A stretch of 63,636 nucleotides of DNA, counting the filler, from Nemertoderma westbladi (lineage: Eukaryota; Animalia; Xenacoelomorpha), in the NCBI GenBank assembly GCA_032718475.1. It is 4 parts of 4 records of this genome, joined end to end, with 100 filler letters (N's around TTAATTAATTAA, not from the genome) between each part and the next. Parts side by side here need not be neighbours in the genome. Positions count along the whole stretch, not along the records: positions 1 to 22,572 come from JAUCBJ010003652.1; 3 more parts are not named here. The stretch is one strand, 5' to 3'. Below are positions 1 to 49,765 of the stretch, piece after piece. Both the position numbers and the translations under genes were made by a program. Under the pieces are notes generated by a model, which searched no databases, was not told where the DNA came from, and saw only the letters and a list, made by a program, of their open reading frames with translations. Numbering within the stretch: position 1 is the first letter of the stretch; each line of letters opens with the position of its first letter.

Positions 1-54
1 CTCTAACAGTAGCGTAAAACGCAAATAAATCTGTTAAACCTTTTGACCATCTGT

Positions 55-312
55 AATTCTAGTCGATTAAGATATCGAGGCACCCACCGATATACTTGAA
101 AGACAAATTCTAGAATCAGTGGTTAACGTCCCCAGACAAGCTCTGGAATAAATCGGTGCCCATCTTAAATATTAATTTAATATTTATTAAAATCTGTAAA
201 ATTCAGATCCGTTAACAATTCTAGTCGATTAAGATATCGTAGCACTTACCGATACTCTTAAAAGACAAATTTCATAGAATTAAGGATCCTATGTCCCCAG
301 ACCTGCTCTGGA
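55..312. repeat. Imperfect direct duplication (~100 bp block, offset ~162 bp)
   Basis: AATTCTAGTCGATTAAGATATCG...AAAGACAAAT...GTCCCCAGAC..GCTCTGGAAT occurs starting at 55 and again at 217. Confidence 0.8.
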
Positions 313-1131
313 ATCAAATTGTGTCAATTTTAACATCAAATAATAAAATTCACGGGAATAAATTTAAATTCATATTTTAAATGAATTTCATAAATTGTCA
401 TTTTGTACAATTTATAACATTCCCGGAATTCCATTGATTAATAGGGAGCGGAGATTCATCCTATTGAGTGTATTAGAGTGCGAGAATCTCCAACATATAG
501 TCAATAGCCGATAAAATTAATAAAATCATACATAGAGAGGATATTGACAATTAAAGAATTATTATTAAATAGCATCCCAGATCTGTATGCATGAGAATTA
601 CCCTAATTCTACCGCTAGCATTCCATAATGTCACCATAGCAACACCCACGCTAGAATTAGAAGCAAGTTAAAAGAACAATAGAAAGCTTGTCCCATTGCA
701 TAGCATAGAGAATATAGCACACTGCTAGTATCCAAGGATACACAGTAATAACGTGACATTCTGGAAGGCACTGACTAACGGACAAATGGCCTGTATGTGT
801 ACAATTGGTGACAGTTGTGTAGAATTTGTGCGTTTGTAGGTGAATGTTACTGCTAAGGTGTGTTTACAGTAGCTAGTCGCAATTGTGAAAGTAACCCAAC
901 TCTCCTATAGAAAGAACCTAAAGTGGATTCAAGCCTTTGGGATGGACAGTGGAGTGACTTGTGCCGGTTATCATTGTCGTGATGTTGCTACATGTTGGCG
1001 TAAACACCGCGACGACGGTACATCGGCGCTGAGGATCTTACACTGTCCGGGGGCAAAAGAGGGGTAGGCAGCGACGCCCGCTAGCCTAATATATAAACTT
1101 ATTTGGATATTAATAAACTCAGATAGCAGAT

Positions 1132-4100
1132 ATGACGGAGTTGATAGAAGATGATCTTGGTATTAGGGAGCGATATACTCTACCTTTACAAGCATTTGTG
1201 GATAGCTTAATACGCGGTGAAGCCGATCCAACCATTACGGAGGACGATGGTCGTTATATCGAACCGCCGATGTCCCAAGAGCAACTTGCGCGTGAATTGG
1301 ACTGTCGGAAATTCACCACTCGCTATACGAATCGTAATGGTACGTATATGGACTTCTTAACTACCGGCCATCCTATCGATTTGCATGATACGAACGATGT
1401 AGATACAGAGAGGGAAATGGTTCTATTTAAATATCATACCCAGCGGAGTCGTAACGATAAACCGAGAATAGATCACGAAAATTCTATTCGTAATCGACTG
1501 GAAAGAGAAAACGTTGAAGAACCGGATAAACGCATCGACTTCAACGAATACCTAGAATTTTTGAGAGAAACCTATCTCAACATCGCCAGTCAGCAGAACT
1601 TAGAGACTCGATATCCTCAAGGTATACATCACGACCCTGTGGTAGAACTTAAACGGCTCTATTTCACTATGATGTATCTTACCGCCGATCGTCCACTACC
1701 TGTTATCCCGGATAGTTTTGAACAAATGGAAGAATACTGCAAAACTGGAGAACGATCACCCGCGTTTCCTCTACAGGACGTACGTCTTTGGTATTATTGT
1801 GACGAATGCCCTAGACCCAACCAACAAACTGAAAGACATAAACATCCGCGGAGACGTTGCGCTAAACATAGTTTTACGCGTTACACTTACGGGAGTTTCG
1901 AGCGAAATCTGTTCGACATACCACCCACGATCGCTCGTCTTAAACGATCACTGAATAAACCCATGATCAGAGTTCCGGAATACTCGGTCAGGCCTCCTCA
2001 TTCCCTAGTGAGACCTCAAACTCTTGATCCTAACAGTATCACTGATCCTCCCGAACTATATTCCTTGTTCAAAGACTTAGTGTTACCCAAACAATTAATC
2101 GGTGGTGCTCCGGTAGTGGGTTTGTTAGACATCCGCCCATCCTACTTAGCCGGATTGGGACGCGGGCAGCTAATATCACCCTTTGATCCTTACAATCGTC
2201 CAGGATTAAACCCGATGCAACCCGCCACGGAAGTCGAGGAGAGCGTTATAAGAAACGCTTTAGACGCCATTCTACAGAAAATCGGAAAGGGAACACAAGA
2301 TTGTTTAGAGAAACGTAAACTACAGCAACAAGTACAATCTGTGAAGGAGTTAGCCTTGCCACAGTTCGATAGAGAAATCCAAAACCTCGAGGAAGACATC
2401 GAGCTTGGACGCACGTATTCTCTACAAGAATTTTTAGATGAACACTTACAGAGACAAGCGGAAGAAATTCTACTCGAGGAGAAACACACGAAACTGGAAG
2501 AGAGAGAAGAAGCCGCTTTAGCCCAACCGGAAGCTCAAATCCTCATGACGGACCTCTACTCTAAAACCGTTCGTCATCCCTCGATGATTCCACATTTCGG
2601 GGACAAGCTCTTCGCGACGATACAACCTCAACCGGTTGATATCAGTACAGGATCGCAAAATCTTATCGCTGACGCCCCTATGTTACAGCGTCCGCCGATC
2701 GAGGCCGCTCGTGTTGACGGTATACTCGTTGAACCTCCGGACAATCGAGTGGATCTTGTCCGTCGTATGGTACACGATGTCAACATACGCGCTAGACCCT
2801 TACAGAACTCGTTTTATGGGATCAAAGACCACCCTTATTACGTTAATCTGACTCAATATTATATGGTAAAACCAGAAGACCCGACACATAATTTAAAGTT
2901 TCTACCACTGATAAATCCTCTAGACATTGTCGAACTCGAACAATTGCAGAAACATCTGGATCAGTTAGTAAAGGTAAACTCATTTAGAAAACCATATAAC
3001 ATTTCTCGAATCGAGAAAGATATAGAACCTCCTTATAATCTCGATGGATTTATTAAAACTCGATTAGTCCATTGGAATCTAGATGTATTATTTGAAGAGG
3101 AGAAAATACAAAGATATGGAAATGTAGAGACGTATACCACTCGGCATATGAAGTATAGTGATCTCCCCGACGCTAACCAATGCGGCATTGTGGCATTGTG
3201 GCATCCAGTAGGGATGACCCTAGAGAACGCCACCAAGGAGTGGAATGAAACTCTTAATGTTATTGAGATGTATGGAGTTGTCACCTACGATAATGAATGT
3301 AGCATTCCGGTCGGAGAACTAGGAACTACGCGCATGATCCACATACGCGGATTAGCTGGTTCTACCCACGTGTTCACTCGAGCGTGTTCCGACGTGATTG
3401 ATTATTCTTTTGAAACTCTCACCGAAACACAAAGGAATCTCCGACATGAACAATTCGAACTCGCGCAGCGTTACGTCATTGACACCGAACGCAAACCGGC
3501 CATGGGCATCGATGGATCGATGTTACCCCAGCCCGTACTCGAGATGTTATTCAATGAAAGAATCCTTAAAATCGGCTCAGCTGTTTATGGAGATCTCCAA
3601 AACGACTTTTGGAATATGGAGAACATTCCATACCCTTTCGTTGATACTCAGCTGATTGCCCCCTGGGCAGAAGGTCGAGGTTTCTTCCGCACCATGTATG
3701 CTAATACGTCTAGCAACATTACAAAGGTGCAACGAACTTCCATCGGACATCTTGCCTTTCAGGAATACGGATGGAATCTCAAAGTCGGAAATCCCATTAA
3801 CTATCAACAAGTATACGGAGATCATTATTCTCGCTTGTACTTTGATGGACCATTAACCGCACCTGGCGCCGTGTATAGCTTCATGAGTGTTCCACTCCGT
3901 CCCTCCTTAGCTATATACACAATCTTTGAAAATACCGCACTTGCCGGTTGGCTAGCCGATGTGTGCAGTCGTACTATACGCGCCCATCCATTAATACTTG
4001 GAACCAAACTCGCTAAGCTAGATGAACATAATAAATTCATTCGTTTCGAATGTTTCCGGCGATTTTTAACCCCGTTCCGCAACGTGGATAGCCAATTTAA

Positions 4101-5391
4101 AGACCGCGCTTTGACCAAACTCAGCCTAAGAAACTCAGCTGCAGAGAAGTTGGATAGCGCTGGATTCGCCATTTTCCAAGAGATTTGTATATCGAACTTG
4201 AACTCCTCAGTTATACAAAGACCTCGAATCCCCACCGGTTATTCTGTCGTGGAAATTCAGACAATAGGTCCACCTGAAGAGACAGACACGCCCACCTCAG
4301 CTATGCATTTGGAAGACGAACCAATATGTCTAGAATCTGAAGAGATTCAGCCTATCGCACCCCGGAACAGCGACAACGATTACATCATAGAATGGTATCA
4401 AGGTCCACAGTGTCTCACTGCGTACGATTATCGACATGCCAATTATGTTTCTAGGCAACGTTGTCGGTTATGCGCATCGAGAGACCATGATACGCCCATG
4501 GACACCAACGTCCGCTGTTCCTATTTCCAAGAACAACCGACTATGGAAATTTATTGCGCATATTGCAGACTCAATAACTTGCATATCTTTGCTGTTTGCC
4601 CTCAATTTATGACTCAATGTCACCATTGTCAACTAAAGGGACATGCCAGTTTCGATTGCCCTTTTAATTACGATTTGGAAAGCGTAGATGAAATGATCAC
4701 ACTACGTTACATCAGAGCTTGGGAAGCGAACGCTGATTTACATTGTGATTCGCGCCATCGCTATTATCCCGGACGCGCTTACGAAGGAGTTTATGCGTTC
4801 CATCCTTATCTATTCGCTTCGGTTGAACAGAAATCACGCATATCAAGTTACGAGCTACTGAAGCGCGTTGGAGAATGTATTTCAACCAAATTCGTACGCA
4901 AATTTCTCAGGAGTGTTAATCCTAGCGACCTTCATTCCTATAACTTAATCAATTATATCCGTCAGGATCCGGGCTATGGAGACTTGTTTGTTAACTCACA
5001 CCCCGAGTTACAGGAAGTATATCGACGGCCTTACGAATACCGAGCCCGCGAACGCGAGTTGGAAAGGACCATTAAACCCCGGAGGTTTCTAACTGCCTAT
5101 GGTCCACCCACGGCCCTCGTTCAGACCACTCGTAAAGGACCCGTAAGAGCGGCTGTCTTGAAACGAGCTCTCAAAGCTGTTAGACCCCTCTCCCCGGACG
5201 TTGATGTCAATCAACCCGGTACTTCGACTGGCGGATACACCGACCATAATCCTACACCCTCTGATGCAATCATATTGCACCCTTCACCCAGGAGTTATAG
5301 CCCTCCTTGTAAAGTGGCTCGCCCCAAAGAGAAAAGGACTCTGGCTAGCTTTAAGAAACTGCGTAAACGCCGTCCGCGCAAGAAAGACTAA
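1132..5391 (+). CDS. 1419-aa intronless protein with DEDDy-like 3'-5' exonuclease domain and CCHC zinc knuckles; probable accessory ORF of an LTR retroelement
   Basis: Long open frame. ExoI-like GVVTYDNEC (~3274-3300), LPQPVLEMLFNERILKIGSAVYGD and FVDTQ (~3520-3650), SIGHLAFQEYGWNLK, ExoIII-like PLRPSLAIYTIFE (~3890-3930). Cys/His motifs CRLCASRDH, CAYC..H..C and CHHCQLKGHASFDC (4460-4660). Predicted coiled coil at ~2300-2520 and a basic C-terminus. Followed by a PPT and LTR. Confidence 0.75.
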   Translation: MTELIEDDLGIRERYTLPLQAFVDSLIRGEADPTITEDDGRYIEPPMSQEQLARELDCRKFTTRYTNRNGTYMDFLTTGHPIDLHDTNDVDTEREMVLFKYHTQRSRNDKPRIDHENSIRNRLERENVEEPDKRIDFNEYLEFLRETYLNIASQQNLETRYPQGIHHDPVVELKRLYFTMMYLTADRPLPVIPDSFEQMEEYCKTGERSPAFPLQDVRLWYYCDECPRPNQQTERHKHPRRRCAKHSFTRYTYGSFERNLFDIPPTIARLKRSLNKPMIRVPEYSVRPPHSLVRPQTLDPNSITDPPELYSLFKDLVLPKQLIGGAPVVGLLDIRPSYLAGLGRGQLISPFDPYNRPGLNPMQPATEVEESVIRNALDAILQKIGKGTQDCLEKRKLQQQVQSVKELALPQFDREIQNLEEDIELGRTYSLQEFLDEHLQRQAEEILLEEKHTKLEEREEAALAQPEAQILMTDLYSKTVRHPSMIPHFGDKLFATIQPQPVDISTGSQNLIADAPMLQRPPIEAARVDGILVEPPDNRVDLVRRMVHDVNIRARPLQNSFYGIKDHPYYVNLTQYYMVKPEDPTHNLKFLPLINPLDIVELEQLQKHLDQLVKVNSFRKPYNISRIEKDIEPPYNLDGFIKTRLVHWNLDVLFEEEKIQRYGNVETYTTRHMKYSDLPDANQCGIVALWHPVGMTLENATKEWNETLNVIEMYGVVTYDNECSIPVGELGTTRMIHIRGLAGSTHVFTRACSDVIDYSFETLTETQRNLRHEQFELAQRYVIDTERKPAMGIDGSMLPQPVLEMLFNERILKIGSAVYGDLQNDFWNMENIPYPFVDTQLIAPWAEGRGFFRTMYANTSSNITKVQRTSIGHLAFQEYGWNLKVGNPINYQQVYGDHYSRLYFDGPLTAPGAVYSFMSVPLRPSLAIYTIFENTALAGWLADVCSRTIRAHPLILGTKLAKLDEHNKFIRFECFRRFLTPFRNVDSQFKDRALTKLSLRNSAAEKLDSAGFAIFQEICISNLNSSVIQRPRIPTGYSVVEIQTIGPPEETDTPTSAMHLEDEPICLESEEIQPIAPRNSDNDYIIEWYQGPQCLTAYDYRHANYVSRQRCRLCASRDHDTPMDTNVRCSYFQEQPTMEIYCAYCRLNNLHIFAVCPQFMTQCHHCQLKGHASFDCPFNYDLESVDEMITLRYIRAWEANADLHCDSRHRYYPGRAYEGVYAFHPYLFASVEQKSRISSYELLKRVGECISTKFVRKFLRSVNPSDLHSYNLINYIRQDPGYGDLFVNSHPELQEVYRRPYEYRARERELERTIKPRRFLTAYGPPTALVQTTRKGPVRAAVLKRALKAVRPLSPDVDVNQPGTSTGGYTDHNPTPSDAIILHPSPRSYSPPCKVARPKEKRTLASFKKLRKRRPRKKD

Positions 5392-5461
5392 CTGTTTAGA
5401 GTATTTACGTATATTAGAAACTGTGATTTTGTATATTTTATAGACTCAAATCCCATTTTCT

Positions 5462-5469
5462 GGGAGCGG
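5462..5469 (+). other. Polypurine tract-like sequence (GGGAGCGG) abutting LTR
   Basis: Purine-rich octamer immediately 5' of the TGTAAAAGCTT terminus that is shared with the other LTR copy. Confidence 0.55.
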
Positions 5470-6731
5470 TGTAAAAGCTTCTGTGGGATATAACTGGCCC
5501 TTTTGCTTCGCAATCCAGTTTCCCCCCTAGGCGCTGGAATACTCTAAAAGGCTCTATAACTATATATATATTCCCCTCGCCCGCAAGGTACCGTTATAGG
5601 TGTTTTAACGGACATAAAAGTCATTCTGCTATATACGTGTTTTGGCGGACATGGTAAGGCAAAAAACCTGCAATGCACCAAGTACCTTTACACAGCTTAG
5701 CCTTGATGATTCAGATTGCGACATCTAGCAGCTGGTTGCTGGCATGGAAACAGCCATTGGACGCATGGTTCTTTGTTTGGCTTGAGCCAATCAGAGCGAT
5801 TTTTTCTGTCAATGTGTAGATATTCGGCCGATCATACTAGAAGTGTTCAGTCTTACTGTTTTTTGTGATACTGTTGTTGTTGGTATCTAGGCCAGGAACA
5901 CCGGCTCTAGAGTCAATTAGTTTTCATACTTTAGAAGAAACATTAGTAGGCTTAAATTATAGAGCGTATAACTGTTATCACATCATATATCAATTCATAT
6001 CAACTTGTTTCTATTCTTGCATTATCGGTTCAACATACATTATTATACTGCTATTTACTGTTGTGTTTTGGTTGAATATTATTTGGAGAACATATATAAA
6101 GAACCCAAATTTCCCAATTTTCTTGATACACTACAGGTTAGAGAGACGGGTTATATATAGCGATTGCGACTTATATTGTTGTGGTTTGTAGTGAATTTAA
6201 TGCTATTTGGTAAGCCCTACATGAGTCAATTGCTGTTCGCTTTATATATGATAAAATTCATTGACGGTCGGCAAATTAGTGAGCAGTATTGTGTGTTACC
6301 GGTAGTGTGCATGATTGTGATTGATAACTAAGCATTTCCTAAAGAATGCGCCTCATACGTGAATCATAAGCCTTACCGACTTACCGTTGTGACTAGTATA
6401 AGTCATATCTCTGTTTACCTAGATAGAGCGCCACGTCCTAAAGGAACTGTTAATATTTCCCGAAAGTGAATAATATTAGTCAGAAATTATTTATTAACGA
6501 TCAATCGAATAATACAATACAGTAAGCTTACACTGCAATAATAATCTAAGCCCTCAGAATCCAGTCTCCCGGGTATATCCAGCGGGTGAATGGACGCGCA
6601 CTAGGCTGGCTTCTGCTAATGTTGTGTTTATTGGTATTAAATATTTGTCATCTTCTAAAGTCTATTTATAAACCAAAAGACATATAAATTTTGGCAGGTT
6701 AAACTGCTAAAGGTCTTCAAAAGCGCGTACA
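5470..6731 (+). mobile_element. Long terminal repeat (3' LTR, ~1.26 kb)
   Basis: Begins TGTAAAAGCTT and ends AAAAGCGCGTACA (TGTA...TACA). Colinear similarity to 47193-48224 (-) and 45752-45885 (+), with homology stopping at these termini. Conserved AGCCAATCAGAG CCAAT box at ~5785. Confidence 0.8.
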
Positions 6732-7420
6732 GTGTTCTATTGGGCAAGTGACTGCATCCCTATAATATTACGCTATAATGCTTAATGTCAAAATTGATAA
6801 ATTTAAAAATTGCCTATTGGGGAGTATATAACGTTACCCAGTTGATGAGACACGTTACCCTAGAACAAGTACCATAAAACCTTTACATCTATAGTACAGT
6901 ATGTGGCACCAGTGCCGGTATTTTTGTAGGTCCCGAGTGGTAGAGATATTATTCTACGACATTTTCCGGCCAACGGAGACTATGAAACTGAATGATTGGG
7001 TGTTTCAAATGTTTACTTTTAATTTCAAAGTCGCAAACATTACCGTAATTATTGTTATCCATTAGGGCATAAGATAATCTGACACTAGGGCAACTATTAC
7101 TAGTATGTTATGTACGTTACCTACAAAGTAATTATTTTTAGTAAATCATTATTATAATAATTTATTATTATAAGTCAATATTCCTACAAAAAGCCTACAT
7201 TAATATATTCCATAACGAAGTGGAGCGGACTGTAAATACTGGCGGTAAGATAATTTATATTAATAATTCTCCAAGTAAGTAAAAGTTTCCTATTCAATCT
7301 AAATACTATTGTGTTAAAATTGTGTGAAAGATGACGGAATGAAAGTTAATTTCAGAATGCTTGTTGTTATTCATCTACCGTAAGTCTAGCCACTGCAGTA
7401 GGCCTACTGTAATTGTGAGT

Positions 7421-7527
7421 GGAACAAAATTCGCTAAAATAGGAACAAAATTCGCAAAAATAGGAACAAAGTTCGCTGTGAATTTGAACAAAATTTGCAT
7501 TTTTCACATTTTAGGAACAAAGTTCGC
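7421..7527. repeat. Short ~21-bp tandem repeats (GGAACAAAATTCGCAAAAATA)
   Basis: About 4-5 imperfect copies visible. Confidence 0.65.
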
Positions 7528-8478
7528 GCTCCGAGTGAGAGAGTAATAAATTTGGCAAGTAATATACTTCTCTGCAGTTTGAGCATGATTCAATAAATAG
7601 TAGTAGCTTTACTAGGCCCTCATGAGTACCAGCACCTGGTGTTTCTATCGTTGAGTTGATGGCAATTTTCGTGTTTTCACCTTTTCACTCTTCGAAATTG
7701 CGACAAACATTATGTAGAATTGGGAAAAATGGAAGAACGTGTTTGCTTGACCTAGTAGTTGTAGTGCACTCATATGCAATGAAACTATAAACAAGGTAGA
7801 ACATAGTTTTCCGTAGTACAGTAGCTGTCAGGGTGGAAAGGTAGTAGTGGTGGTATTTTGGGTGCTAACTTTATCCTTCTTCCATGAGATTAGCTTTTTT
7901 CTTTTCTGTCATGTAAATGTGGGCTCAGTAGGATTAGAGGATCATATGTCGTTTCTAGTCCGCGGTATAATTACTAAGTCGGAGGACATTGCTAACAGCA
8001 GTGCAACACCCGCTGTGGAATATTTAATGAGAAGAACCGTATAGAAATAAGGCTGTGCTGTGGCATCTATCAGTGCGGGGCACCAGAAGGGTTGGCGCAT
8101 ATAATAGTCATAGGGTGTGGTATTGTAAGGTATCTCACTTCTTGTGATGTATCAAAAGAGATCGAGGTTCAGCATAAAACCGAATCATGGGATGTGATTT
8201 TGGAAGATAGCAGCTGTATCTCTTATATATCTCAAATTATTTTCGAAGGTTTGGGGTATATATAATTTATATAATATATAAATATATAAATATAATTGTA
8301 AGGAAACCAAGATCAACCACGTTAAATAAAAATTATAAGAAATTACACAAGCTTTCGAAATAATATAATATTTCTTTTTCAAGTGATTTAAATAATTAAT
8401 TAAATAAATAGCTAATAATTCATTACAGTTTCCATGAAATTAAGCGTCTACAGTACATTAGTCTACATAATGAGTTCT

Positions 8479-8900
8479 CTAATCTGGATTAAATACGTCT
8501 AAGCCGAAATTATTGCAAACCGCTTCATTTATAGTGTTGAGACCAAATGGCTTGATTGTTCTTAAGGTGCACTGCCAGTATCCTTCCCTTGTACGGATCT
8601 CCCGTCGCTGATCTTTCTTTCCCCTGCCTTTGTAATGAACCTTTTCAATGGGTGTTATTTCGAAATGCGAAAAATCATGGTTTTCATTTTTACAAAAATG
8701 TTTCTCTATAGTCGTTTGTGGCTTATGATTCCTTATATTACACTTATATTGTGATAGCCTTGGTTTAAATGTTTCTGTTGATCCGATTCCTTGTAAGTTA
8801 CATATTTTACATTTTGCTAAATATATTATATCTTTGTCATCACAGGTAAGGCGCTGTTTAATTTCATATTTAGTTTTCAAACGGGTCGAGGTCAAACGGA
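8479..8900 (-). mobile_element. Penelope-like element fragment, C-terminal GIY-YIG endonuclease
   Basis: YEIKQRLTCDDKDIIYLAKCKICNLQGIGST...RLSQYK...EKHF...REGYWQCTLRTIKPFGLN is a typical PLE GIY-YIG; 5'-truncated. Confidence 0.85.
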
Positions 8901-8912
8901 ACCTCGACCCGT

Positions 8913-9417
8913 TAGCTCTATCAAAAATGGATACCATTTGGAAATCAGATCTCTCCAGGCACCTGAAGACTAAGTTCTTTCGAGCCACAGTGGAAAGTGT
9001 ATTTTTATACGGGGGTGAGACCTGGACACTGACTAAATCACTTGAACAACGAATTGATGGTTGCTACACAAGACTACTAAGGGCAGCCTTAAACATCAGC
9101 TGGAGACAACACATGACAAACGCCGAGCTTTATGGTACAATACCACCTGTATCAACCACCCTCTGTGAACGCAGATTAAGATTCAGTGGGCACTGCTGGC
9201 GAAGTAAAGACGAGGTCATACCAGATCTACTTCTCTGGCAACCAACTCATGGAAAGCGTAGTCATGGACGACCGGCCATAACATATATAGATCAACTTGA
9301 AAGAGATACTGAACTTGGGAGAAACGAAATTGCGACAACTATGGAGAATCGGGAAGCCTGGAAGGATCTCATTTCCACTGTCCGAGTTCGCTCGACCTAG
9401 TAGTAGTAGTAGTAGTA
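8913..9417 (+). mobile_element. RTE-clade LINE 3' fragment (family A) with (TAG)n tail
   Basis: FLYGGETWTLT...RRLRFSGHCWR...GRP...W C-terminal RT motifs; ends VRVRST*, then TAG repeats; near-identical to 17143-18020 and 55922-56396. Confidence 0.9.
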
Positions 9418-9517
9418 ATGTTTTTATCACTCTAATATAAAATATACAAACGTTGCGGCAAGCCGACTTCAGAGGGTTATACATTAAATCGAAACCGGAC
9501 GTGACGACCGACCGACC

Positions 9518-11626
9518 GTGACGAGGAGAGCACCGCGGGTCCCGGCAGGTAGACGGGATCCAGGGGGAGAAAGGACAGATATTTGCCAGCCGGTGGATTA
9601 CAACGAGTTTAGAATCCCCCATAAATGCAGATACGTGACCCCCAGATCAAACAACGAGATCGTAGAGAGTTTCATAATGGATCTACACAAAGCGGTCGAC
9701 AGGGTGACACAAGTACCGAGAAGGGATTTAAACCTCACAACAGATCAATTGAAAGATCTAAAGACTTTAAGAGATGACGAGGATATATCGATCTTAAAGG
9801 GAGATAAGACTGGTAATGTGGTGATAGTGGATAGCCAGATTAGATTGAGAGAGATCAGGAGATCTCTGGACGACAGTGATAAATACAAGCGGCTAGAAGG
9901 AAGCCCAGTGGGAAAATTCAGGGCCGAGTTAAAGAAGATGTTGGATGACTTGGATATCGGGAGCAAGGAACTACGCAGTTATTTGGTGCCGAGATACCCA
10001 GAGAATGGATACGTATTTCCGTTACCCAAAGATCATAAGGATCGCCGGGAGTGGGTGGATTGGGGTGGAGGAGGTGTAGCGCCCAAAATGCGTATAATAA
10101 TTTCAGCTACTGGGACCGTCATAGAGAGAATAGGGAAACTTTTGAATACAATTCTGGAACCACTCTTACAGAGAATGTCCCATTTCATACGAGATTCGGC
10201 GGATGCGAAGATGTCGTTGCCCAAAAGGAAACTCAACGAAGTCACGTTCCTAGCGATGGACGTAGTAGATATGTACCCGTCAGTAAGGTTAGAGGACGCG
10301 GTACAAGCTGTAACTCAGGCATTACTTGAGAATGAAGATATTCTAGAACTTTCAGGATACAGCATTGAGCAGATTGTAGCTATGGTAACCTTTGTGATGG
10401 AGCACACGTATTTCGAGTTCGAGGAGAAGTTTTACTTGCTCAATAAAGGCGTCGGGATGGGAGTCCCAGCTGGTAAAGGGATAGCTGTATTAACCGTGAA
10501 CATGTTACACAAACGGGTGAACCTGGTGAACATGTTTTCCGCCATATATTTTAAATCGTTCGTCGATGATGCAGAATCTATATTTCCAACAAAGCTGTCT
10601 AACTCGGTGAAAGACGCAATAAAGAAAATGTACAATAATGTATGTATGGAAGTATTTGGAAATGACAGCATAAAATTTACTTTCGATTTCGATTTTCATG
10701 AATCAGTATTTCTCGACTTGACTTTGTACCACGATGAAGAAGATGGAGTTATAAAGACAAGGGTATACTTCAAGCCATTATCGGGGAAGTTACCGATACC
10801 GTTCGCCAGCGGACATGATAAGGAAATGCTAATACCAACCGCAAGAGGGCAGCTGTTACGGTTTAACAGGCTGTCCAGTAAAGACAATGATTATGAAGCT
10901 GTTAGAGACCGGTATTTGACAGATTGCGCGATATCTGGATATCCGGTAGCGGCATTGGAATCGCTGAGGAATAAGTCGAGGGAAGAGCTAAGAAGGAAGA
11001 GGAATCCGAGGGTTGATAAGAAAGAGAAAATGGTATATTTAACTGTACCGGGACCATTTGGAGAGACCATATCAAGGGTAGTCTCAAACTATAAACGACG
11101 GTTAATAAACTTTCGCTTTAAAGTGGCGGTGTTAAGAAGGAGCGGTCTGAATCTCGGACAACGATTAATAAAGAAGAGGAAGACACAACAACGAAGGGGA
11201 AATGCTAAGTGCGGCACCTCAACGCGTTGCGAGACATGTCCCATCATCCACGATATGGCAGAGACACCATGGGGAGATAAAATCCGGGGGTTCTACACAT
11301 GTGTTTCAACGAATGTGTTATACATAATCACCTGCGAGAAACATGAAGAGCAATATTACATAGGGCAGACCAGACAAAAACTGAGGGACCGAATGAACGG
11401 GCACAGGGCTATGATAAAGAAGTACAGAGGTCCCGCTGCGATGGGACTCGAATACGGAGAGAGAGAGGAACATCTACTCATCGAGCACTTCCGTTGGTGC
11501 GAGTTGGGAGATATGCGTGTAACGATTTTCCGAGGCTTCACGAGGGACGGGGACAGGGTGCATGCGGAAGCGAACTACATTAGGAAGTACAAACCAGCAT
11601 TAAACAAAATGCAACCGATAGTCTAG
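9518..11626 (+). CDS. Penelope-like reverse transcriptase - Zn linker - GIY-YIG endonuclease
   Basis: ILKGDKTG, PKDHK, MRIIIS, LAMDVVDMYPSV, GVGMG, FVDD, FLDL, VYFKP; linker CGTSTRCETC; NVLYIITC..YYIGQT..LRDRMNGH..EHF..AEANYIRKYKPALN. Frame is open from 9488. Confidence 0.92.
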   Translation: MTRRAPRVPAGRRDPGGERTDICQPVDYNEFRIPHKCRYVTPRSNNEIVESFIMDLHKAVDRVTQVPRRDLNLTTDQLKDLKTLRDDEDISILKGDKTGNVVIVDSQIRLREIRRSLDDSDKYKRLEGSPVGKFRAELKKMLDDLDIGSKELRSYLVPRYPENGYVFPLPKDHKDRREWVDWGGGGVAPKMRIIISATGTVIERIGKLLNTILEPLLQRMSHFIRDSADAKMSLPKRKLNEVTFLAMDVVDMYPSVRLEDAVQAVTQALLENEDILELSGYSIEQIVAMVTFVMEHTYFEFEEKFYLLNKGVGMGVPAGKGIAVLTVNMLHKRVNLVNMFSAIYFKSFVDDAESIFPTKLSNSVKDAIKKMYNNVCMEVFGNDSIKFTFDFDFHESVFLDLTLYHDEEDGVIKTRVYFKPLSGKLPIPFASGHDKEMLIPTARGQLLRFNRLSSKDNDYEAVRDRYLTDCAISGYPVAALESLRNKSREELRRKRNPRVDKKEKMVYLTVPGPFGETISRVVSNYKRRLINFRFKVAVLRRSGLNLGQRLIKKRKTQQRRGNAKCGTSTRCETCPIIHDMAETPWGDKIRGFYTCVSTNVLYIITCEKHEEQYYIGQTRQKLRDRMNGHRAMIKKYRGPAAMGLEYGEREEHLLIEHFRWCELGDMRVTIFRGFTRDGDRVHAEANYIRKYKPALNKMQPIV

Positions 11627-11669
11627 GAACGGGTTCGGAGAAGGGAAAGAGGGACTCCTTAGTTTTGAA

Positions 11670-14180
11670 CTATATGGGTAATACTGGTGCCGTCGATATA
11701 GTTTTGTTTAATTGTTATTTTACGGTTTCTATGGTTGCGTACAGTAATGTGGTAGTAATTTTGGGTTATGTTATGTAATAATGGTGCTGTTGATATAGTT
11801 TCAGTTTAATTGTTATTTTACGGTTTCTATGGTTGCGTACAGTAATGTGGTATTAATTTTGGGTTATGTTATGTAATAATGGTGCTGTTGATATAGTTTC
11901 AGTTTAATTGTTAGTTTACGGTTTCTATGGTTGCGTACAGTAATGTGGTATTAATTTTGGGTTATGTTATGTAATAATGGTGCTGTTGATATAGTTTCAG
12001 TTTAATTGTTAGTTTACGGTTTCTATGGTTGCGTACAGTAATGTGGTATTAATTTTGGGTTATGTTATGTAATAATGGTGCTGTTGATATAGTTTCAGTT
12101 TAATTGTTAGTTTACGGTTTCTATGGTTGCGTACAGTAATGTGGTATTAATTTTGGGTTATGTTATGTAATAATGGTGCTGTTGATATAGTTTCAGTTTA
12201 ATTGTTATTTTACGGTTTCTATGGTTGCGTACAGTAATGTGGTATTAATTTTGGGTTATGTTATGTAATAATGGTGCTGTTGATATAGTTTCAGTATAAT
12301 TGTTGTTTTACGGTTTCTATGGTTGCGTACAGTAATGTGGTATTAATTTTGGGTTATGTTATGTAATAATGGTGCTGTTGATATAGTTTCAGTTTAATTG
12401 TTATTTTACGGTTTCTATGGTTGCGTACAGTAATGTGGTATTAATTTTGGGTTATGTTATGTAATAATGGTGCTGTTGATATAGTTTCAGTATAATTGTT
12501 ATTTTACGGTTTCTATGGTTGCGTACAGTAATGTGGTATTAATTTTGGGTTATGTTATGTAATAATGGGGCTGTTAATATAGTTTCAGTTTAATCGTTAT
12601 TTTACGGTTTCTATGGTTGCGTACAGTAATGTGGTATTAATTGGTAAATTAATGTGGTATTAATTTTGGTTTATGTTATGTAATAATGGGGCTGTTGATA
12701 ATTGTTATTTTACGGTTTCTATGGTTGCGTACTAATGGTATTAATTGGTAAATTAATGTGGTATTAATTTTGGTTTATGTTATGTAATAATGGGGCTGTT
12801 GATATAGTTTCAGTTTAATCGTTATTTTACGGTTTCTATGGCTGCGTACAGTAATGTGGTATTAATTGGTAAATTAATGTGGTATTAATTTTGGTTTATG
12901 TTATGTAATAATGGGGCTGTTGATAATTGTTATTTTACGGTTTCTATGGTTGCGTACTAATGGTATTAATTGGTAAATTAATGTGGTATTAATTTTGGTT
13001 TATGTTATGTAATAATGGGGCTGTTGATAATTGTTATTTTACGGTTTCTATGGTTGCGTACAGTAATGTGGTAGTAATTTTGGTTTATGTTATGTAATAA
13101 TGGTGCTGTTGATATAGTTTCAGTTTAATTGTTATTTTACGGTTTCTATGGTTGCGTACAGTAATGTGGTATTAATTTTGGGTTATGTTATGTAATAATG
13201 GTGCTGTTGATATAGTTTCAGTTTAATCGTTATTTTACGGTTTCCTGCGGTCGCGTACAGTAATGTGGTATTAATTTTGGTTTATGTTATGTAATAATGG
13301 TGCTGTTGATATAGTTTCAGTTTAATTGTTATTTTACGGTTTCTATGGTTGCGTACAGTAATGTGGTAGTAATTTTGGTTTATGTTATGTAATAATGGTG
13401 CTGTTGATATAGTTTCAGTTTAATTGTTATTTTACGGTTTCTATGGTTGCGTACAGTAATGTGGTATTAATTTTGGTTTATGTTATGTAATAATGGTGCT
13501 GTTGATATAGTTTCAGTTTAATCGTTATTTTACGGTTTCCTACGGTCGCGTACAGTAATGTGGTATTAATTTTGGTTTATGTTATGTAATAATGGTGCTG
13601 TTGATATAGTTTCAGTTTAATCGTTATTTTACGGTTTCTATGGCTGCGTACAGTAATGTGGTATTAATTTTGGTTTTTATGTTATGTAATAATGGTGCTG
13701 TTGATATAGTTTCAGTTTAATTGTTATTTTGACGGTTTCTATGGTTGCGTACAGTAATGTGGTATTAATTTTGGTTTATGTTATGTAATAATGGTGCTGT
13801 TGATATAGTTTCAGTTTAATCGTTATTTTACGGTTTCTATGGTTGCGTACAGTAATGTGGTATTAATTTTGGTTTATGTTATGTAATAATGGTGCTGTTG
13901 ATATAGTTTCTGTTTAATCGTTATTTTACGGTTTCCTACGGTCGCGTACAGTAATGTGATACAGTTTCTGAGTTATGTTAAATAATACGGTCGCGTACAT
14001 ACACTAAGGTAATATTTAACTTCTGATCTATGTAGTAAAGTGAGGCTGTTGATATAGTTTTGTTTAGTAGTTAGCTTCAGTTTCCTAGCGTCGCGTTCAG
14101 TAATGTGATATTAGTAATTCTGATTTATGTAAGTGATAACGGTTTTGTTTAATAGTTATTTTTTGCGGTTACTATGGTCG
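11670..14180. repeat. 98-bp AT-rich tandem satellite (~25 units)
   Basis: GGTGCTGTTGATATAG recurs at 11783, 11881, 11979...; variant units at 12600-13050; degenerate at both edges. Confidence 0.95.
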
Positions 14181-17142: not shown

Positions 17143-18020
17143 CTACTACTACTACTACTACTAGGTCGAGCGAACTCGGACAGTGGAAATGAGATCCTTC
17201 CAGGCTTCCCGATTCTCCATAGTTGTCGCAATTTCGTTTCTCCCAAGTTCAGTATCCCTTTCAAGTTGATCTATATATGTTATGGCAGGTCGTCCACGAC
17301 TACGCTTTCCATGAGTTGGTTGCCAGAGAAGTAGATCTGGTATGACCTCGTCTTTACTTCGCCAGCAGTGCCCACTGAATCTTAATCTGCGTTCACGGAG
17401 GGTGGTTGATACAGGTGGTATTGTACCATAAAGCTCGGCGTTTGTCATGTGTTGTCTCCAGCTGATATTTAGGGCTGCCCTTAGTAGTCTTGTGTAGCAA
17501 CCATCAATGCGTTGTTCAAGTGATTTAGTCAGTGTCCAGGTCTCACCCCCGTATAAAAATACACTTTCCACTGTGGCTCGAAAGAACTTAGTCTTCAGGT
17601 GCCTGGAGAGATCTGATTTCCAGATGGTATCCATTTTTGATAGAGCTACCCAAGCCTTTGCTTTCCTAACTTCTATGTCCTTTTTGCTACTCTCTATCCA
17701 TGATCCAAGGTACTGGAAGTCATCGACCTTCCTTAGTTGATTATTATCAATGGTTGTCAAGTTTCCATTAACTTTAAAATTCATGAATTCCGTCTTGGTA
17801 GCATTTATATGCAATCCAACCCCCTTAGCAGTCCTCTCCACTTTATTTAGTAGAAGCTGTGCATCTGCTAGCGTATTAGAGAGCAGGGCGATGTCATCCG
17901 CAAAGTCGGTGTCTGTGACTGTAGTTGCCGGATATCTACTACTTCTACGTTCTTGAAGTGTGAATCCCAGATCTTCACCCTTTGTGGCCGTCCTCATTGC
18001 GTAATCCAGCACAATTACAA
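17143..18020 (-). mobile_element. RTE-clade LINE, 5'-truncated (family A), with 13-bp TSD
   Basis: ORF 17161-18012 with DFADD, GLHINATKT, FQYLGS; (TAG)n tail; TSD ATTATTTTCCCTA at 17130-17142 and 18021-18033. Confidence 0.93.
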
Positions 18021-22572: not shown

Positions 22573-22672
22573 NNNNNNNNNNNNNNNNNNNNNNNNNNNN
22601 NNNNNNNNNNNNNNNNTTAATTAATTAANNNNNNNNNNNNNNNNNNNNNNNNNNNNNNNNNNNNNNNNNNNN
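22573..22672. other. Artificial contig spacer
   Basis: N44-TTAATTAATTAA-N44. Confidence 0.97.
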
Positions 22673-25901: not shown

Positions 25902-28900
25902 ATGGTCGTTAATGAAAATGTGTTAAATGAAGCTACAAAGGAAGAAAATGTTACAAAAAGCTACAAAGATGAGCTTGAAATTCCTATTTCAAGACAGAGT
26001 GCACAGGAACACGAAGAACAAGACAATGTTCAAAATGTTGTGAAAGATATAGATCTAACAATGGAAGTTGTGGACAAATCCTTTGATGATGCTTCCATAA
26101 AGGATTCCAAACATTCCAAAACTAAGCATCACGATAAGAAGAAAAAGAGCAAAAGCTCTTCTCATGTTAAGTCAAAAGATGCTAAGGTGAAGAAATCAAA
26201 GAAAGCCGATATTGATGATGTAGATGTTCAACTAATAGTTAATTCTGAGGAAGAGTTCCCACTGGCTAAAGATTATATTCCTGAAAAGCCCAAACAAAGC
26301 CGACGGAAACATTTGGAAACTAACATGGATACTAGCAGTTCTGTAGTTGAACTTGACATTCAGTGTTCCAGCCATGCTCAAGAATTAGAGGATTCGCGGC
26401 TAGATAGGCGATTAAAACGACTCAGTATGTTATGTAAATCGTCATCCAATGCCACACAACGTAAATCATCTGGTTCTCATAAAGTGGAAGATATCTCCAA
26501 GGCGCGGCATTCTTCGGCTCGTAGAAGGCACTCGCGATCGCTTTCTTCTGATGATGCTCAAGCAAAGCAACATTACCATGGCGATCAACACGAAGGATTT
26601 GATGAAAATAATTTAAATTCACCTTCTAGATTAGGCGATAAATACCCCCATAATATCATGAACTCAGAGTCAAAATCATTTAGCCCCCTTGATAGTCATA
26701 TGTCACACACCAGTGGAGTTCCAATTCGATACTCAGTTTCGCCATTACCACCAAAAGATTCACCTATAAAGAAGGATGAAACTCCTCCACTGAATAATGT
26801 TAGCATAATTACTCCGAGTGATACTTCTAAACATTGTCCTTATCAAATTCATTCTAGTCGATTGGCCTTGTTTCATGGTGGCACTGCACCAAGTCCAACA
26901 AGGGAGCACCCAGTTAGTCCTGATTCAACAACTAAAAGTTCAGAGATTGTCCCAGATGGCAACTATCTACACCATAATAATGTGTCAGATGATGAACGTG
27001 TTGACAGGGGTGATTCTGATCGACATAGGTCTCGAGATAGCCGTCGTGACCGCCCTTACAAGAGATCACGTTCCCGAGATATTGAGAAGTGGCGGTACCA
27101 CAACAGGAGACGTGGTAGGAAGTCTCCAGTAAGGCAGCTTAGAGATGATTTAGCCTGTGTCACAGAGAAGACTGCTATTGCAGGACATTCTGATAAAAAT
27201 GATGATAATGCCATAGATACTGATATTACTATATGCAATATAGACTTAGACAGCATACCAATACCATTATCAGATATTCCAATGCCTGATAGCTCACCTG
27301 TGGCAACTAAGCAAAATATCACTGAAGATTTTCCTAACATTGCAACTGATTTAATGCAGATACCACAACCACCTCCTGGTATAAAACAACTTGTGCCTGA
27401 TGATGCTGTTACTTTCGAAAACCCAGAGAACCATGCTGATGTTGATATTCCACCACCAAAAATTGACTATTCCACATCTGATCCCCTTCTTTATCATCAT
27501 ATCAATAACCTTGAAAACGAGCATTTTGAAGAATCATCTGATGATGATAATGAGTATGTTCCTCTTTCAGGTTCACGTTTTCGAGATATTAAACGGGATC
27601 AAGTACCTGCTCTTTGGGGTTCTTCTCTACCTATAGCAACAGCTATACGGCGGCAATATCCAATCCCTGATCCCCTTCCACATGTCCATCAAGTAATAGA
27701 AGCAGATCAAAACGATGGTCAAAATGTTCCTCCACATTTTGATGAAGATAATAGAGATGATAAAATTGATGGTGATGGTTATCAACCTGCATTTGAGGAA
27801 TTATATTCACCTACGCATGGGGACAGCAGTGGTGATGAAGTTTATATTGCGAAAGACAATGCTTCTAACAAGGAGCTTGATGAGGATTCTGATGAGCCAG
27901 TTTCCATTGAACATTTAATTGAAAGTGTTCATAAAGGTGGCATACCACCATCTGGTGCCATTCTTGATAATATTCCTGGTCTGGGTAGTCCCCAGCATCA
28001 CTCCTCTTCGCAGCGACCTACAATGCGAACTAATCGTTTCCAAACTGAGGGAACTAAACATCCTCAAAGTCATGACATGCCTTCACATTCCACATTTATA
28101 GTTGAGAATTTTGATGATCCATTTGATCACACTGAGGGAATTAATGATGTTGCTGATGATGTCAACTTGATACCATTGCCTACCCAGATTGGTAAGTCCC
28201 CTTTATGTTCTCCTGGTCCTTCAATGAGGTCCATGCGCAATCAGTTACCAACTGGAGGTAGTGAAAATCGCTTTTCCCAACTGTTTCCCTTAGTTGAGCA
28301 GTCTTCCCAGTTGGATGTCCCATTATCTCAAGGTTCGGAATGTGGACCCCCAAAGTATCCACCACATGAAATCGATTTTCCTTCCACTGGTGAGAATTTT
28401 AGTGAGTTTATAGTTCCACCAAATTACCAATTTCCTACAGTGCCAATTGAATCACATAACCAGTCATCACAAAATCTAAATCAATCATTGAACTATCACA
28501 GTAATGAAAAAAGATCTTATGGTACTGAAGCTTCACAGATGCATGCCCTATCACCCATTGATGAACCCAAACCCACAGGTTCCAGATTTACAGCACCACC
28601 TGGCCTTATAGTATGTGATGGATCAAAAGGTCATGTAGGTGAGAATTTATTACAGATACATGATCTATCATCCAATGAAGGAACTCATCCCACAAGTTCC
28701 AGATTTACTGCTCCGCCTGGTCTTATAGTGAGTGGTGTAGCTAAAGATGATTTAGGTGAAAATTATTCTGAAGGTTTAAATCAAATTAGCAACAATAAGG
28801 AAAAATCCAAGGAAGATGCTGATATAGAGCCAGGGTCTGTGAAGGCCAAATTGAAAGCTGCAATGGAAAGAATTAAGTCTGGTAAAAGTAAAATGACACC

Positions 28901-44991: not shown

Positions 44992-45560
44992 AATATAGTG
45001 TCATTTTCTGATGACATGGACACCCCCCCCCCCCCCCCCCCCAATTTTTCTACAAATCTTTATCATATTGCTTGAAATTTGAAGAACAACTAGTTCAACT
45101 CACCGAGCTGCCGTGGTTATTACCGGCACCAAGAAGCCGGAATTTTCTATTTCGCCTTTAAATTTTTTTATAAGCGTTTTTAAAAAGTGTCTTTTTTTAT
45201 GTATTAAATAGAATAACATAGCCTCGCGCCGGTGCAAAACCATGCAACATTTGAACGCTCATATCTCAGCTATTTTTCAACGAAATTCAAATTGTGTTAC
45301 ATATTTGGAATCCTTGTACGGTCAGCTTTCCATTGGTACGAACAAACAGCTATAAGGTAGAAGAATAACTGCGGTGTAACGGGTGTAATATCGCTGGAGA
45401 CCGAGATTAAAAGCAAAAATAAAAATTCTGGCTCACCCAGTCAGTGGTCGGGAGGTGAAACTATCTCTGTTTCAAGTTTCATGCAATCTCATTAAGATCT
45501 GTAGAACAATTAGGGGGGGGGGGGGGGGGGGGCGTGTCACCGGTAACACGACACTATATT
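44992..45560. mobile_element. MITE-like element with imperfect TIRs containing polyC/polyG
   Basis: AATATAGTGTC...GACA..CAC(C)n at left, (G)nCGTGTCAC...GACACTATATT at right. Confidence 0.65.
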
Positions 45561-45651: not shown

Positions 45652-45751
45652 NNNNNNNNNNNNNNNNNNNNNNNNNNNNNNNNNNNNNNNNNNNNTTAAT
45701 TAATTAANNNNNNNNNNNNNNNNNNNNNNNNNNNNNNNNNNNNNNNNNNNN
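45652..45751. other. Artificial contig spacer
   Basis: N44-TTAATTAATTAA-N44. Confidence 0.97.
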
Positions 45752-45885
45752 GCATGGACTGGCTTCGGCTAATGTTTTTAGTTTGTTTTGTATTAAATCT
45801 TATCATCTTATAAAAGGCAGATTATCAATAAAGACATATAAATTTCGGCAGGTTAAACTGCTGAAGGTCTATAAAAGCGCGTACA
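45752..45885 (+). mobile_element. 3' end of LTR (same family as 5470-6731)
   Basis: CTGGCTTC.GCTAATGTT...AATAAAGACATATAAATTTCGGCAGGTTAAACTGCTGAAGGTCT..AAAAGCGCGTACA, followed directly by satellite. Confidence 0.85.
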
Positions 45886-47192
45886 CACTGGTTACTCAGG
45901 TGATACTCCCCTCACCCGTTGTTACACTGGTTACTCAGGTGATACTTCTCTCACCCGTTGTTACACTGGTTACTCAGGTGATACTTCTCTCACCCGTTGT
46001 TACACTGGTTACTCAGGTGATACACCTCCCCGCACCCGTTGTTATACTGGTTACTCAGGTGATACTTTTCTCACCCGTTGTTACACTGGTTACTCAGGTG
46101 ATACTCCCCTCACCCGTTGTTACACTGGTTACTCAGGTGATACTTCTCTCACCCGTTGTTACACTGGTTACTCAGGTGATACTTTTCTCACCCGTTGTTA
46201 CACTGGTTACTCAGGTGATACTCCTCCCCTCACCCGTTGTTACATTGGTTACTCAGGTGATACTCCCCTCACCCGTTGTTACACTGGTTACTCAGGTTAT
46301 ACTCCTCCCCGAACCCGTTGTTACACTGGTTACTCAGGTGATACTCCTCCCCTCACCCGTTGTTACACTGGTTACTCAGGTGATACTCCCCTCACCCGTT
46401 GTTACACTGGTTACTCAGGTGATACTCCCCTCACCCGTAGTTACACTGGTTACTCAGGTGATACTCCGCACACCCGTAGTTACACTGGTTACTCAGGTGA
46501 TACTCCCCTCACCCATTGTTACACTGGTTACTCAGGTGATACTCCTCCCCTCACCCATTGTTACACTGGTTACTCAGGTGATACTCCTCCCCTCACCCAT
46601 TGTTACACTGGTTACTCAGGTGATACTCCTCCCCTCACCCGTTGTTACACTGGTTACTCAGGTGATACTCCCCTCACCCGTTGTTACACTGGTTACTCAG
46701 GTGATACTCCCCTCACCCGTAGTTACACTGGTTACTCAGGTGATACTCCGCACACCCGTTGTTACACTGGTTACTCAGGTGATACTTCTCTCACCCGTTG
46801 TTACACTGGTTTCTCAGGTGATACTCCTCCCCTCACCCATTGTTACACTGGTTACTCAGGTGATACTCCTCCCCTCACCCGTTGTTACACTGGTTACTCA
46901 GGTGATACTCCCCTCACCCGTTGTTACATTGGTTACTCAGGTGATACTCCTCCCCTCACCCGTTGTTACACTGGTTACTCAGGTGATACTCCTCCCCTCA
47001 CCCGTTGTTACACTGGTTACTCAGGTGATACTCCTCCCCTCACCCGTTGTTACACTGGTTACTCAGGTTATACTCCGCACACCCGTTGTTACACTGGTTA
47101 CTCAAGTGATACTTCTCTCACCCATTGTTACCCTGGTTACTCAGGTGATACTCCTCCCCTCACCCCGTTGTTACACTGGTTACTCATTTGAT
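45886..47192. repeat. 39/42-bp minisatellite (CTGGTTACTCAGGTGATACTC(CT)CCCTCACCCGTTGTTACA)
   Basis: About 32 tandem units. Confidence 0.97.
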
Positions 47193-48224
47193 TATTCGCG
47201 CTTTTAGACCTAACAGTTTAACCTGCTGATTTAAGTGTCTCCTTAAATCGACTATTGCCCTTGCTTATTGACATCAGTTGAAACCAGTCTATGCGCGGCG
47301 TATGACCCACGGTGTGGGAGACTGGATTCAGTTCTAGAGAAATTTATTGCAGTAGGCTACTTTGTATTATTCGATTGATCGCTACTATATAATCTCCAAC
47401 AACTATATTTACTTTCGGGGAAATATTAACAGTTCCTTTGGGACGTGGCGCTTTAAGTATCAAACAGAGTTATGACTTACACTAATCACAACTAGAGGCA
47501 ATAGGGTATCGCAAATAGCGCATTTTTTAGGAATGCTTTATTAACCTTCACACGACTTCACACTATTTCACACTAATTCACACTAATGCACACTGATTTG
47601 CCGAATGTCACCGATTTTGATCATATATAAGGAGGATTGCAACTGACACACGTAGGGATTATGAAATAGCATTTATTTCACAAAAAAACCATTATAAATT
47701 GAGTCGCAATTGCTACTGGTACACCCTTCTGCTTACCTCAGCAATTAAGAAAGTTGAGGGGTTTACGATTATTTATCAGTATTCTCGAATATAACATCCA
47801 TCAATATAAACAGCAATTAACAACAATATAAAACAGTATTAAAGCAGTGCGGTGAAAAGAGTCAGTATGTTGAAAGAAGTGACTTGTGGCGTGCAGTGTG
47901 TAATGTTAATAGATGGTCGTTCTTATGACTCTAGCCTCTGATGTTTTGGGCAAAATCTGAAACGTCAGAACTTCCGAATGAATCCTGAATGAAGTAGGAT
48001 TCTAGGAAAAACTGCCTATTGCGTCATCTCCCGTAGGCTGCTGTAAACAAAAAGGGGAGATCGCTCTGATTGGCTGAGATATGTCAACCCAACTCTACCC
48101 AACCCAATTTCGTCATCCCAACTCTGTGTTTCTTGACAGGCGCGTAGGTGTACAATTATAAGTCCCTTTAGAGTATTTAGCGCATTGCGTAAAATGACTT
48201 ATTATGTCTGCAAAAGCTTTTACA
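47193..48224 (-). mobile_element. Solo LTR (same family as 5470-6731, diverged) inserted in satellite
   Basis: Minus strand starts TGTAAAAGCTTT and ends AAAAGCGCGAATA (decayed TACA); flanked by TTGAT/GTGAT, an imperfect 5-bp TSD. Confidence 0.8.
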
Positions 48225-49517: not shown

Positions 49518-49765
49518 AGAATCAGCAATGACAAAACCATTTCTGGATTAATTTTCATAAGTTTTTAGGGAACAGAATCAAACTATTTCTACTTATTTTA
49601 TTCAGAACTGTCATATTTTTAGGGTGTTGTTACTCAGCTTTATATGCTAGGGATATATAGACGGAAACTTCATAATTAATTAATTGGATTGCATGTTTCC
49701 AAACTTTCAGGCCTTATGGAAATAATGTCGGAAATTTCGTTATGGAAATATATTATATTACCGTA

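Follow-up and report, generated by a model that had tools for sequence, protein, structure and literature searches.

A highly repeated, likely LTR-type unit of Nemertoderma westbladi with a likely accessory gene for a predicted DEDDy exonuclease with zinc knuckles

In the window analysed here, the whole stretch of 63,636 nucleotides from Nemertoderma westbladi (assembly GCA_032718475.1), positions 1-6731 form a unit that is highly repeated and has a TG...CA terminal repeat at its end; it probably represents the 3' end of a long terminal repeat (LTR) retrotransposon. Its 1419-residue open reading frame (ORF) is likely an accessory gene for a predicted RNase D/WRN-type (DEDDy) 3'-5' exonuclease with zinc knuckles, whose product would trim RNA in trans; we give this reading as a whole a probability of about 0.6. 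That the unit is an element and carries a DEDDy gene is, taken by itself, very probable.

The repeated unit, its open reading frame and its terminal repeat

The ORF, which an earlier note on this DNA had described as intact, is indeed uninterrupted from its ATG at 1132 to the TAA ending at 5391, on the plus strand, with 68 to 98 stops in each of the five other frames across the same span. No reverse transcriptase, protease or integrase motif is found in it by pattern search. The hallmarks of an env gene are likewise not found, since there is no transmembrane segment (the top 19-residue hydropathy window is 1.43) and no fusion-protein homology among Pfam families at an expect value (E)<=1, in agreement with the earlier claim that the ORF has no reverse transcriptase, integrase, transmembrane or env motif. 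The upstream region, 1-1131, contains a direct repeat of 114-117 bp (55-168 and 217-333, 77% identical), no ORF longer than 68 residues apart from a 5-codon lead-in of the main frame, and no similarity to the LTR.

The 8-mer GGGAGCGG, of which seven bases are purines, lies at 5462-5469; it begins 70 bp past the ORF stop, as had been claimed, and adjoins a repeat of 1262 bp that is opened by TGTAAAAGCTT at 5470 and closed by GCGCGTACA at 6731. This motif is too short to be significant alone, and its weight comes from its position. When positions 1-7200 are compared with the window by BLAST, two other LTR-related places are found. The copy at 47193-48224 opens with the same 11 bases as the focal LTR, a string absent from the rest of the window; its 5' 130 nt reach a local score of 45 against a shuffle maximum of 31 (n=2000), its identity is 70% over 600 bp further in, and its 3' end is in register, but with AATA where the focal LTR has TACA. 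Its flanks, ATCAC and ATCAA, are a 5-bp target duplication matching at four of five positions, and this copy represents a diverged solo LTR from a related family. The second place, 45759-45885, is 82% identical over the 3' 130 bp of the LTR, with the final 13 bases identical, its 5' part being lost at a filler gap. The ends of the repeat, said to be confirmed by two other copies, are thus backed by two copies at the 3' end and by one, 47193-48224, at the 5' end. Both copies lie within one 39/42-bp satellite (45752-49520), which could reflect a target preference or a local duplication.

The focal LTR is not a solo LTR, because its flanks (AGCGG and GTGTT) are unrelated and form no target duplication. 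As it also has the purine tract on its left, retroelement anatomy makes it the probable 3' LTR, the position claimed for it, and depth in public runs drops after 6731. Reading the LTR on the minus strand was considered and ruled out, as the TGG start of a primer site follows neither end. A search of 1-7200 against Rfam gave no match at E<=1.

Six of the seven public runs listed contain the stretch or part of it, and four were mapped on positions 1-7000 at 80% likeness. Contigs fitting this region number 44,277 in run X1, which may be the source sample, and 12,229 in run X3. The minimum summed contig depth over the 18 bins of the ORF, a measure that is not a copy number, is 59,624 in X1 and 53,596 in X3, the bin just past the LTR having 172 and 520, so that the lowest ORF bin is 347 and 103 times higher, respectively. 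In both runs, depths over the 1.1 kb upstream and over the LTR equal or exceed those of the ORF bins (the median over 1-1131 is 9e5 in X1 and 4e5 in X3), and the drop is located in the first bin beyond the LTR. In run X4 the flanking bin is empty; in run X5, perhaps an RNA run, all depths are low and the ORF minimum is 3 times the flank. As every ORF bin exceeds the flank by a factor of 100 to 350 or more in two public DNA runs, the ORF is part of the repeat, and the internal region, as well as the LTR, is multicopy. The association of ORF and LTR in one element, proposed earlier, is in agreement with these depths, which are high over the ORF, the upstream DNA and the LTR and fall after 6731. 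In X3, single contigs diverged by 13-16% from the window reach depths of 5,000-14,000, against about 20 for others; this suggests subfamilies made up of numerous almost identical copies.

The earlier note had named as its refuting case a solo LTR landed beside a lone host or viral gene. An ORF without a retroelement core domain would suit such a gene, but the focal LTR has no target duplication, the ORF and the DNA before it reach the repeat level of the LTR, with depths exceeding the flank by 100-fold or more (at least 103-fold in X3, 347-fold in X1), and no relative is found in viral contigs or phages. This explanation is already largely refuted, and we consider it extremely improbable.

A predicted, divergent exonuclease domain and its homolog

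The motif order on which a DEDDy exonuclease had been called is located as claimed, with YDNE at residue 719, ILKIG at 811, VDTQ at 837, SIGHLA at 870 and PLRPSLAIY at 921, then E933. The CCHC knuckles reported with it are present as well, one of them canonical (CX2CX4HX4C, residues 1163-1176) and two non-canonical (1111-1129 and 1142-1156); the region matches Pfam zf-CCHC_3 at E 0.015, under the cut-off. The N-terminal 689 residues, searched as three tiles, have no Pfam match at E<=10, and their best PDB sequence match is at E 0.52.

In a search of 1.84 billion representatives with residues 497-1223, one match is obtained at E<=0.001, to P0001 (E 1.2e-5), a 648-residue singleton on a 9.4-kb contig of an ENA assembly. 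It is 28% identical to the ORF over 187 residues in the exonuclease, with a second match across the knuckles. P0001 has, like the ORF and in identical order, an exonuclease with a YxxxE ending, a linker and then three knuckles; unlike the ORF, it has neither the long N-terminus nor a 40-residue insertion after ExoI. A profile of both proteins matches retroviral nucleocapsid chains (E 5e-4), largely via P0001. No homolog of residues 650-1000 is found among 2000 candidates, no protein beyond P0001 is retrieved with P0001 as the query or with the two-sequence profile, nothing under E 0.05 is found in PHROGs, and no related locus in viral contigs, metagenome contigs, prokaryote genomes or phages; plasmid matches at E 7-8 were dismissed as chance. 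The match to P0001 suggests that both may belong to a broader protein family of old origin, overlooked by profile libraries. The fusion, which was thought possibly undescribed, is therefore not unique in its order of exonuclease and three knuckles, although a DEDDy-plus-knuckle ORF is unreported in the literature searched.

Three weak but concordant searches support a DnaQ/RNase D-like fold for the middle domain, as a remote relationship. In the language-model Atlas, residues 640-1010 and 690-945 group with PF01612 (24/30 and 30/30 matches, respectively, with scores of 0.91-0.93), and the NCBIfam RNase D profile weakly matches residues 800-845 (E 0.007). Fifty-five bacterial loci, nearly all of PF01612 type, were used for comparison, 37 of them to build six profiles and 32 to build a 34-row alignment with the ORF and P0001. 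Three of the six profiles (WRN-like, non-polymerase and all) place residues 775-846 above all 200 ORF shuffles. HHalign of the ORF and P0001 together against the 37 domains gives 92% (E 6e-7, 84 columns), while 40 column shuffles give at most 1.3% and the reversed pair 0.06%. In the 34-row alignment, D720, E722, K813 and Y929 are invariant and D821 is near-invariant; ExoI D-x-E, ExoII D and ExoIII Y are aligned in order with the 32 bacterial members, to which the ORF domain is 12-21% identical. The ORF has two insertions in the domain overall, one of them, of 40 residues, after ExoI. The model computed from this alignment has a predicted local distance difference test score (pLDDT) of 59 overall and of 73-89 around ExoI, ExoII and ExoIII, and its top structural matches are RNase D (Z 13.8, root-mean-square deviation 3.6, 181 aligned), diDNase (Z 13.7) and Nibbler (Z 13.2); as the alignment is filled with the DEDDy family, these matches are circular, not independent, and indicate compatibility only.

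No HRDC match is found in the ORF. The gathering score of PF01612 is reached by neither protein, the ORF having no match and P0001 11.9 bits against a cut-off of 23.6. From its residues, the predicted DEDDy domain of the ORF is best described as a variant and not a canonical PF01612 member. The call of a DEDDy exonuclease is thus supported, as a remote one, for the fold family, by the three weak but concordant searches, and not for the canonical form, there being no Pfam match and the last catalytic residue being Glu.

Selection, deleted copies and the possible role of the product

The ORF is under purifying selection, as indicated by the excess of synonymous variants among copies; dN/dS between copies had been proposed as a check. 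Of the best-supported 40 of 1672 differences, a sample not selected by codon position, 26 lie in the ORF and 19 of these are synonymous, where 34% would be expected for random transitions (P 5e-5); 18 fall at third codon positions, 8 at first and none at second. Among the 12 small indels listed, two lie in the ORF, at neighbouring sites, each of them in a minority of the depth. A larger deletion occurs as well: a contig joining 1500 to 4311, present in X1, X4 and X5, is without 1501-4310, that is residues 123-1060 and the whole exonuclease. The deleted form is dominant in X4, where the deletion contig has a depth of 2918 and the median bin is 950 inside the span versus 8920 outside.

We favour a product that is probably an active exonuclease on RNA and works in trans. 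A gag-pol would lie to the left of the window, with the ORF behind it in env position, and the ORF could be expressed from a dedicated subgenomic or spliced RNA that terminates in the 3' LTR. The knuckles and the basic tail, the latter possibly a nuclear or RNA-binding signal, would hold single-stranded RNA while a two-metal site would remove 3' nucleotides, and this trimming of RNA ends in trans would benefit the element family. The likeliest substrate would be the small silencing RNAs of the host, or fragments of element RNA from which these are supplied. Among functional analogues that play a part in transposon biology, trimmers of the Nibbler/mut-7 type are closest, and it is because of them, and because the family is so abundant, that a small-RNA substrate is favoured. 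A counter-silencing role is the weakest step of this mechanism, and we regard it as tentative and somewhat doubtful.

The same element and fold could alternatively belong to a non-autonomous family, with the ORF as its sole gene and moved by the gag-pol of another family, as the ORF is preceded by 1131 bp of equally repeated non-coding DNA with no trace of an integrase end. Long non-coding spacers bearing tandem repeats are, however, also compatible with the interval separating pol from a third ORF, and purifying selection on a 4.3-kb ORF is easier to understand if copies encoding the protein benefit from it. Even though cargo-carrying non-autonomous LTR derivatives are known (PMC6431247; here and below, statements on cited papers refer to the accessible part of each), a family of this kind is quite unlikely. 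As to the domain itself, the change of Asp to Glu at the ExoIII position and the two long insertions could indicate a catalytically weak or dead DEDDy fold, serving as an RNA-binding adaptor (like Exd1, Maelstrom or Egalitarian) in the transport, packaging or shielding of element RNA. Dead exonuclease domains usually lose catalytic residues, whereas the ORF and P0001, 27% identical, have both retained the Tyr and all four acidic positions; an adaptor is for us improbable, although the knuckles and the basic tail suit RNA binding and inactive DEDD derivatives occur in piRNA (PIWI-interacting RNA) biology (PMC5408684).

An active exonuclease might also be a replication helper, trimming the 3' end of element RNA, of the primer transfer RNA or of the complementary DNA, and not host small RNAs. 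Its nucleocapsid-like knuckles could carry the protein into particles. To our knowledge, most LTR elements replicate without an exonuclease gene, and gene-less copies are abundant in X4, though help in trans would explain that as well. The same role has been proposed for rotifer ORFs (PMC5408684) and for the DEDDy domains of Dada DNA transposases (PMC3706591); as an explanation of the present gene we find it unlikely.

Several results weigh against the reading of the unit as an LTR element whose accessory gene encodes a trans-acting exonuclease. The window begins inside the element, and gag, pol, the primer-binding site and the 5' LTR are all unseen in it. None of the 32 contig pieces listed spans both the ORF stop and the LTR start; the linkage of ORF and LTR in other copies rests on unbroken depth, and summed depth is no copy number. 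As for the protein, the whole ORF has no Pfam family at E<=1, and no PDB sequence match to the exonuclease region or the N-terminus falls below E 0.39. The Atlas matches share 149-167 features, fewer than the usual 170 of genuine members; the RNase D, cyanobacterial and PolA profiles do not exceed the shuffles. HHalign falls to 39% with the ORF alone (residues 684-963), tiles away from the domain giving less than 1%. For the fold check proposed on residues ~690-945, the HHalign pairing with P0001 is favourable, and the unaided single-sequence fold has a pLDDT of only 30. The ExoIII signature YxxxD is not present, position 933 being Glu in the ORF and P0001 and Asp in 32/32 bacterial rows. Moreover, the 26 variants are only those in the ORF among the best-supported 40, and copies without the gene core have amplified well, as expected if the product either acts in trans or can be dispensed with.

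A bolder possibility, which we judge unlikely, is that the ORF and P0001 represent, in distant hosts, an unrecognised family of retroelement counter-defence proteins combining a DEDE exonuclease with three knuckles. By destroying or over-trimming host small silencing RNAs in trans, they would let the LTR family and its gene-less derivatives reach a very high copy number.

Other features of the window and comparison with known systems

Table 1. Coordinates of the repeated unit, of its parts and of related LTR copies
Feature	Position	Strand	Remarks
Internal non-coding region upstream of the ORF	1..1131	+	continues past the left window edge; high depth
Likely accessory ORF, 1419 residues	1132..5391	+	open frame; 19/26 variants (among best-supported 40 of 1672 differences) synonymous
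N-terminal 689 residues of unknown nature	1132..3198	+	Cys/His cluster at residues 223-246, acidic stretch at 401-465; no counterpart in P0001
Predicted DEDDy (RNase D/WRN-type) 3'-5' exonuclease domain	3199..3966	+	residues ~690-945; D720, E722, D821, Y929, E933; two insertions
Three zinc-knuckle-like motifs	4462..4659	+	residues 1111-1176; one canonical CCHC
Basic C-terminal tail	5332..5388	+	net charge +10 over 19 residues
Polypurine-tract-like 8-mer	5462..5469	+	GGGAGCGG; adjoins LTR start
Probable 3' LTR, 1262 bp, TG...CA (TGTA...TACA)	5470..6731	+	ends from related copies; depth falls beyond
3' end of related LTR, cut by filler gap, then 39/42-bp satellite	45752..45885	+	LTR match 45759-45885
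Diverged solo LTR of related family, 1032 bp	47193..48224	-	within 39/42-bp satellite; flanks ATCAC/ATCAA

The window consists of four joined pieces, with three identical 100-bp N gaps containing a 12-base AT linker (22573-22672, 45652-45751 and 59116-59215), and distances across these gaps are unreliable. It also contains a gypsy-type element at ~52147-55921 (plus strand), with gag knuckle, reverse transcriptase, RNase H and integrase zinc-finger matches in several broken frames and a GC content of ~60% versus 36-45% nearby; this element was considered as the missing 5' half or partner of the focal one and ruled out, as it has no DNA in common with it and differs by its GC content. A 649-residue ORF with a C-terminal GIY-YIG domain, presumably of Penelope type, is found at 9677-11626 (plus strand), followed by a 98-bp tandem array (11608-14015), and a second GIY-YIG fragment at 8479-8937 (minus strand). 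Fragments of non-LTR retrotransposon 3' ends, 84-98% identical, lie at 8913-9417, 17144-17997, 56027-56396 and 60900-61804, and short elements resembling miniature inverted-repeat transposable elements, with terminal inverted repeats of 70-100 bp, at 42471-43086, 45023-45531 and 56911-57395. A SETD2-type gene (AWS, SET, WW and SRI) occupies 25902-37496 on the plus strand as a single 3864-residue ORF without introns, and could be either a retrocopy or a sign of an intron-poor genome. Together with the Penelope-type ORF, it points to a eukaryotic, probably animal, host.

The closest published parallels are found in bdelloid rotifers. DEDDy extra ORFs had been mentioned there for Vesta LTR elements and Terminons, which is right, and the RNase D-like DEDDy ORF3 is also found in Juno (Rodriguez, Kenefick, Arkhipova 2017, PMC5408684). 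The ORF3s are typically expressed as a separate transcript; those of DEDDy type have DEDD changed to DEED, and belong to low-copy elements with LTRs of 159-551 bp and no activity shown (PMC5408684). Like the ORF3 of Juno and Vesta, the focal ORF stands on its own ahead of the 3' LTR, is RNase D-like, lacks a transmembrane segment and has kept its catalytic acids with one Asp-to-Glu change. By the published descriptions, and not by sequences, it is set apart from them in several ways: it is 1419 residues long with a 689-residue N-terminus of unknown nature and three knuckles, rotifer knuckles being given for gag/pol only; its Glu is at the fourth position (DEDE), against DEED in the text of that paper; its LTR has 1262 bp; and its copy number seems very high, against 1-2 full-length copies per rotifer family. 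It also has a synonymous excess, in contrast to the neutral variation of rotifer env and GDSL ORF3s, the DEDDy ones not being among those tested (PMC5408684). No rotifer ORF3 sequence is among the matches of the homolog searches with the ORF and P0001. In its position and predicted fold the ORF seems to resemble the DEDDy ORF3 of rotifers; it is not assigned to it, because the motif variant and the LTR size differ and pol is unseen.

Other systems share part of this architecture. Terminon/Athena Penelope-like elements have, like the focal element, a stand-alone DEDDy accessory ORF in a retroelement (PMC5408684, PMC6431247), but hammerhead ribozyme ends at telomeres and no LTRs, whereas the focal element has a TG...CA LTR, a purine tract and no Rfam match at E<=1. 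The cellular exonucleases of PF01612 (RNase D, WRN, Nibbler (mut-7) and Rrp6) have the same motif order and five catalytic positions as the focal domain, which differs from them by a score below the Pfam cut-off, YxxxE, no HRDC match and added knuckles. The Dada transposases are, like the focal product, mobile-element proteins of ~1400 residues with zinc fingers, and in some families a DEDDy domain lies inside the transposase (PMC3706591); in these, the exonuclease is part of a DDE transposase, the genes have introns and small-RNA genes are the targets, whereas the focal ORF gives no transposase evidence and has LTR-type ends. DnaQ-like domains are cited as known LTR accessories (PMC6338049), and the accessible part of a review of Terminons and giant planarian Burro elements contains no DEDDy-knuckle ORF (PMC6431247). 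In our literature search, which did not cover most subscription papers, the Terminon paper, supplements or Repbase, neither a DEDDy-plus-knuckle ORF nor a DEDDy ORF in an LTR element outside rotifers was found.

Exonuclease ORF3s were thus known from low-copy rotifer elements, without a demonstrated function, and one is likely found here in a seemingly extremely abundant family, with its gene under purifying selection. The natural deletion copies provide a contrast that makes it testable what accessory genes other than env do for LTR elements, and whether animal retrotransposons may encode their own suppressors of silencing.

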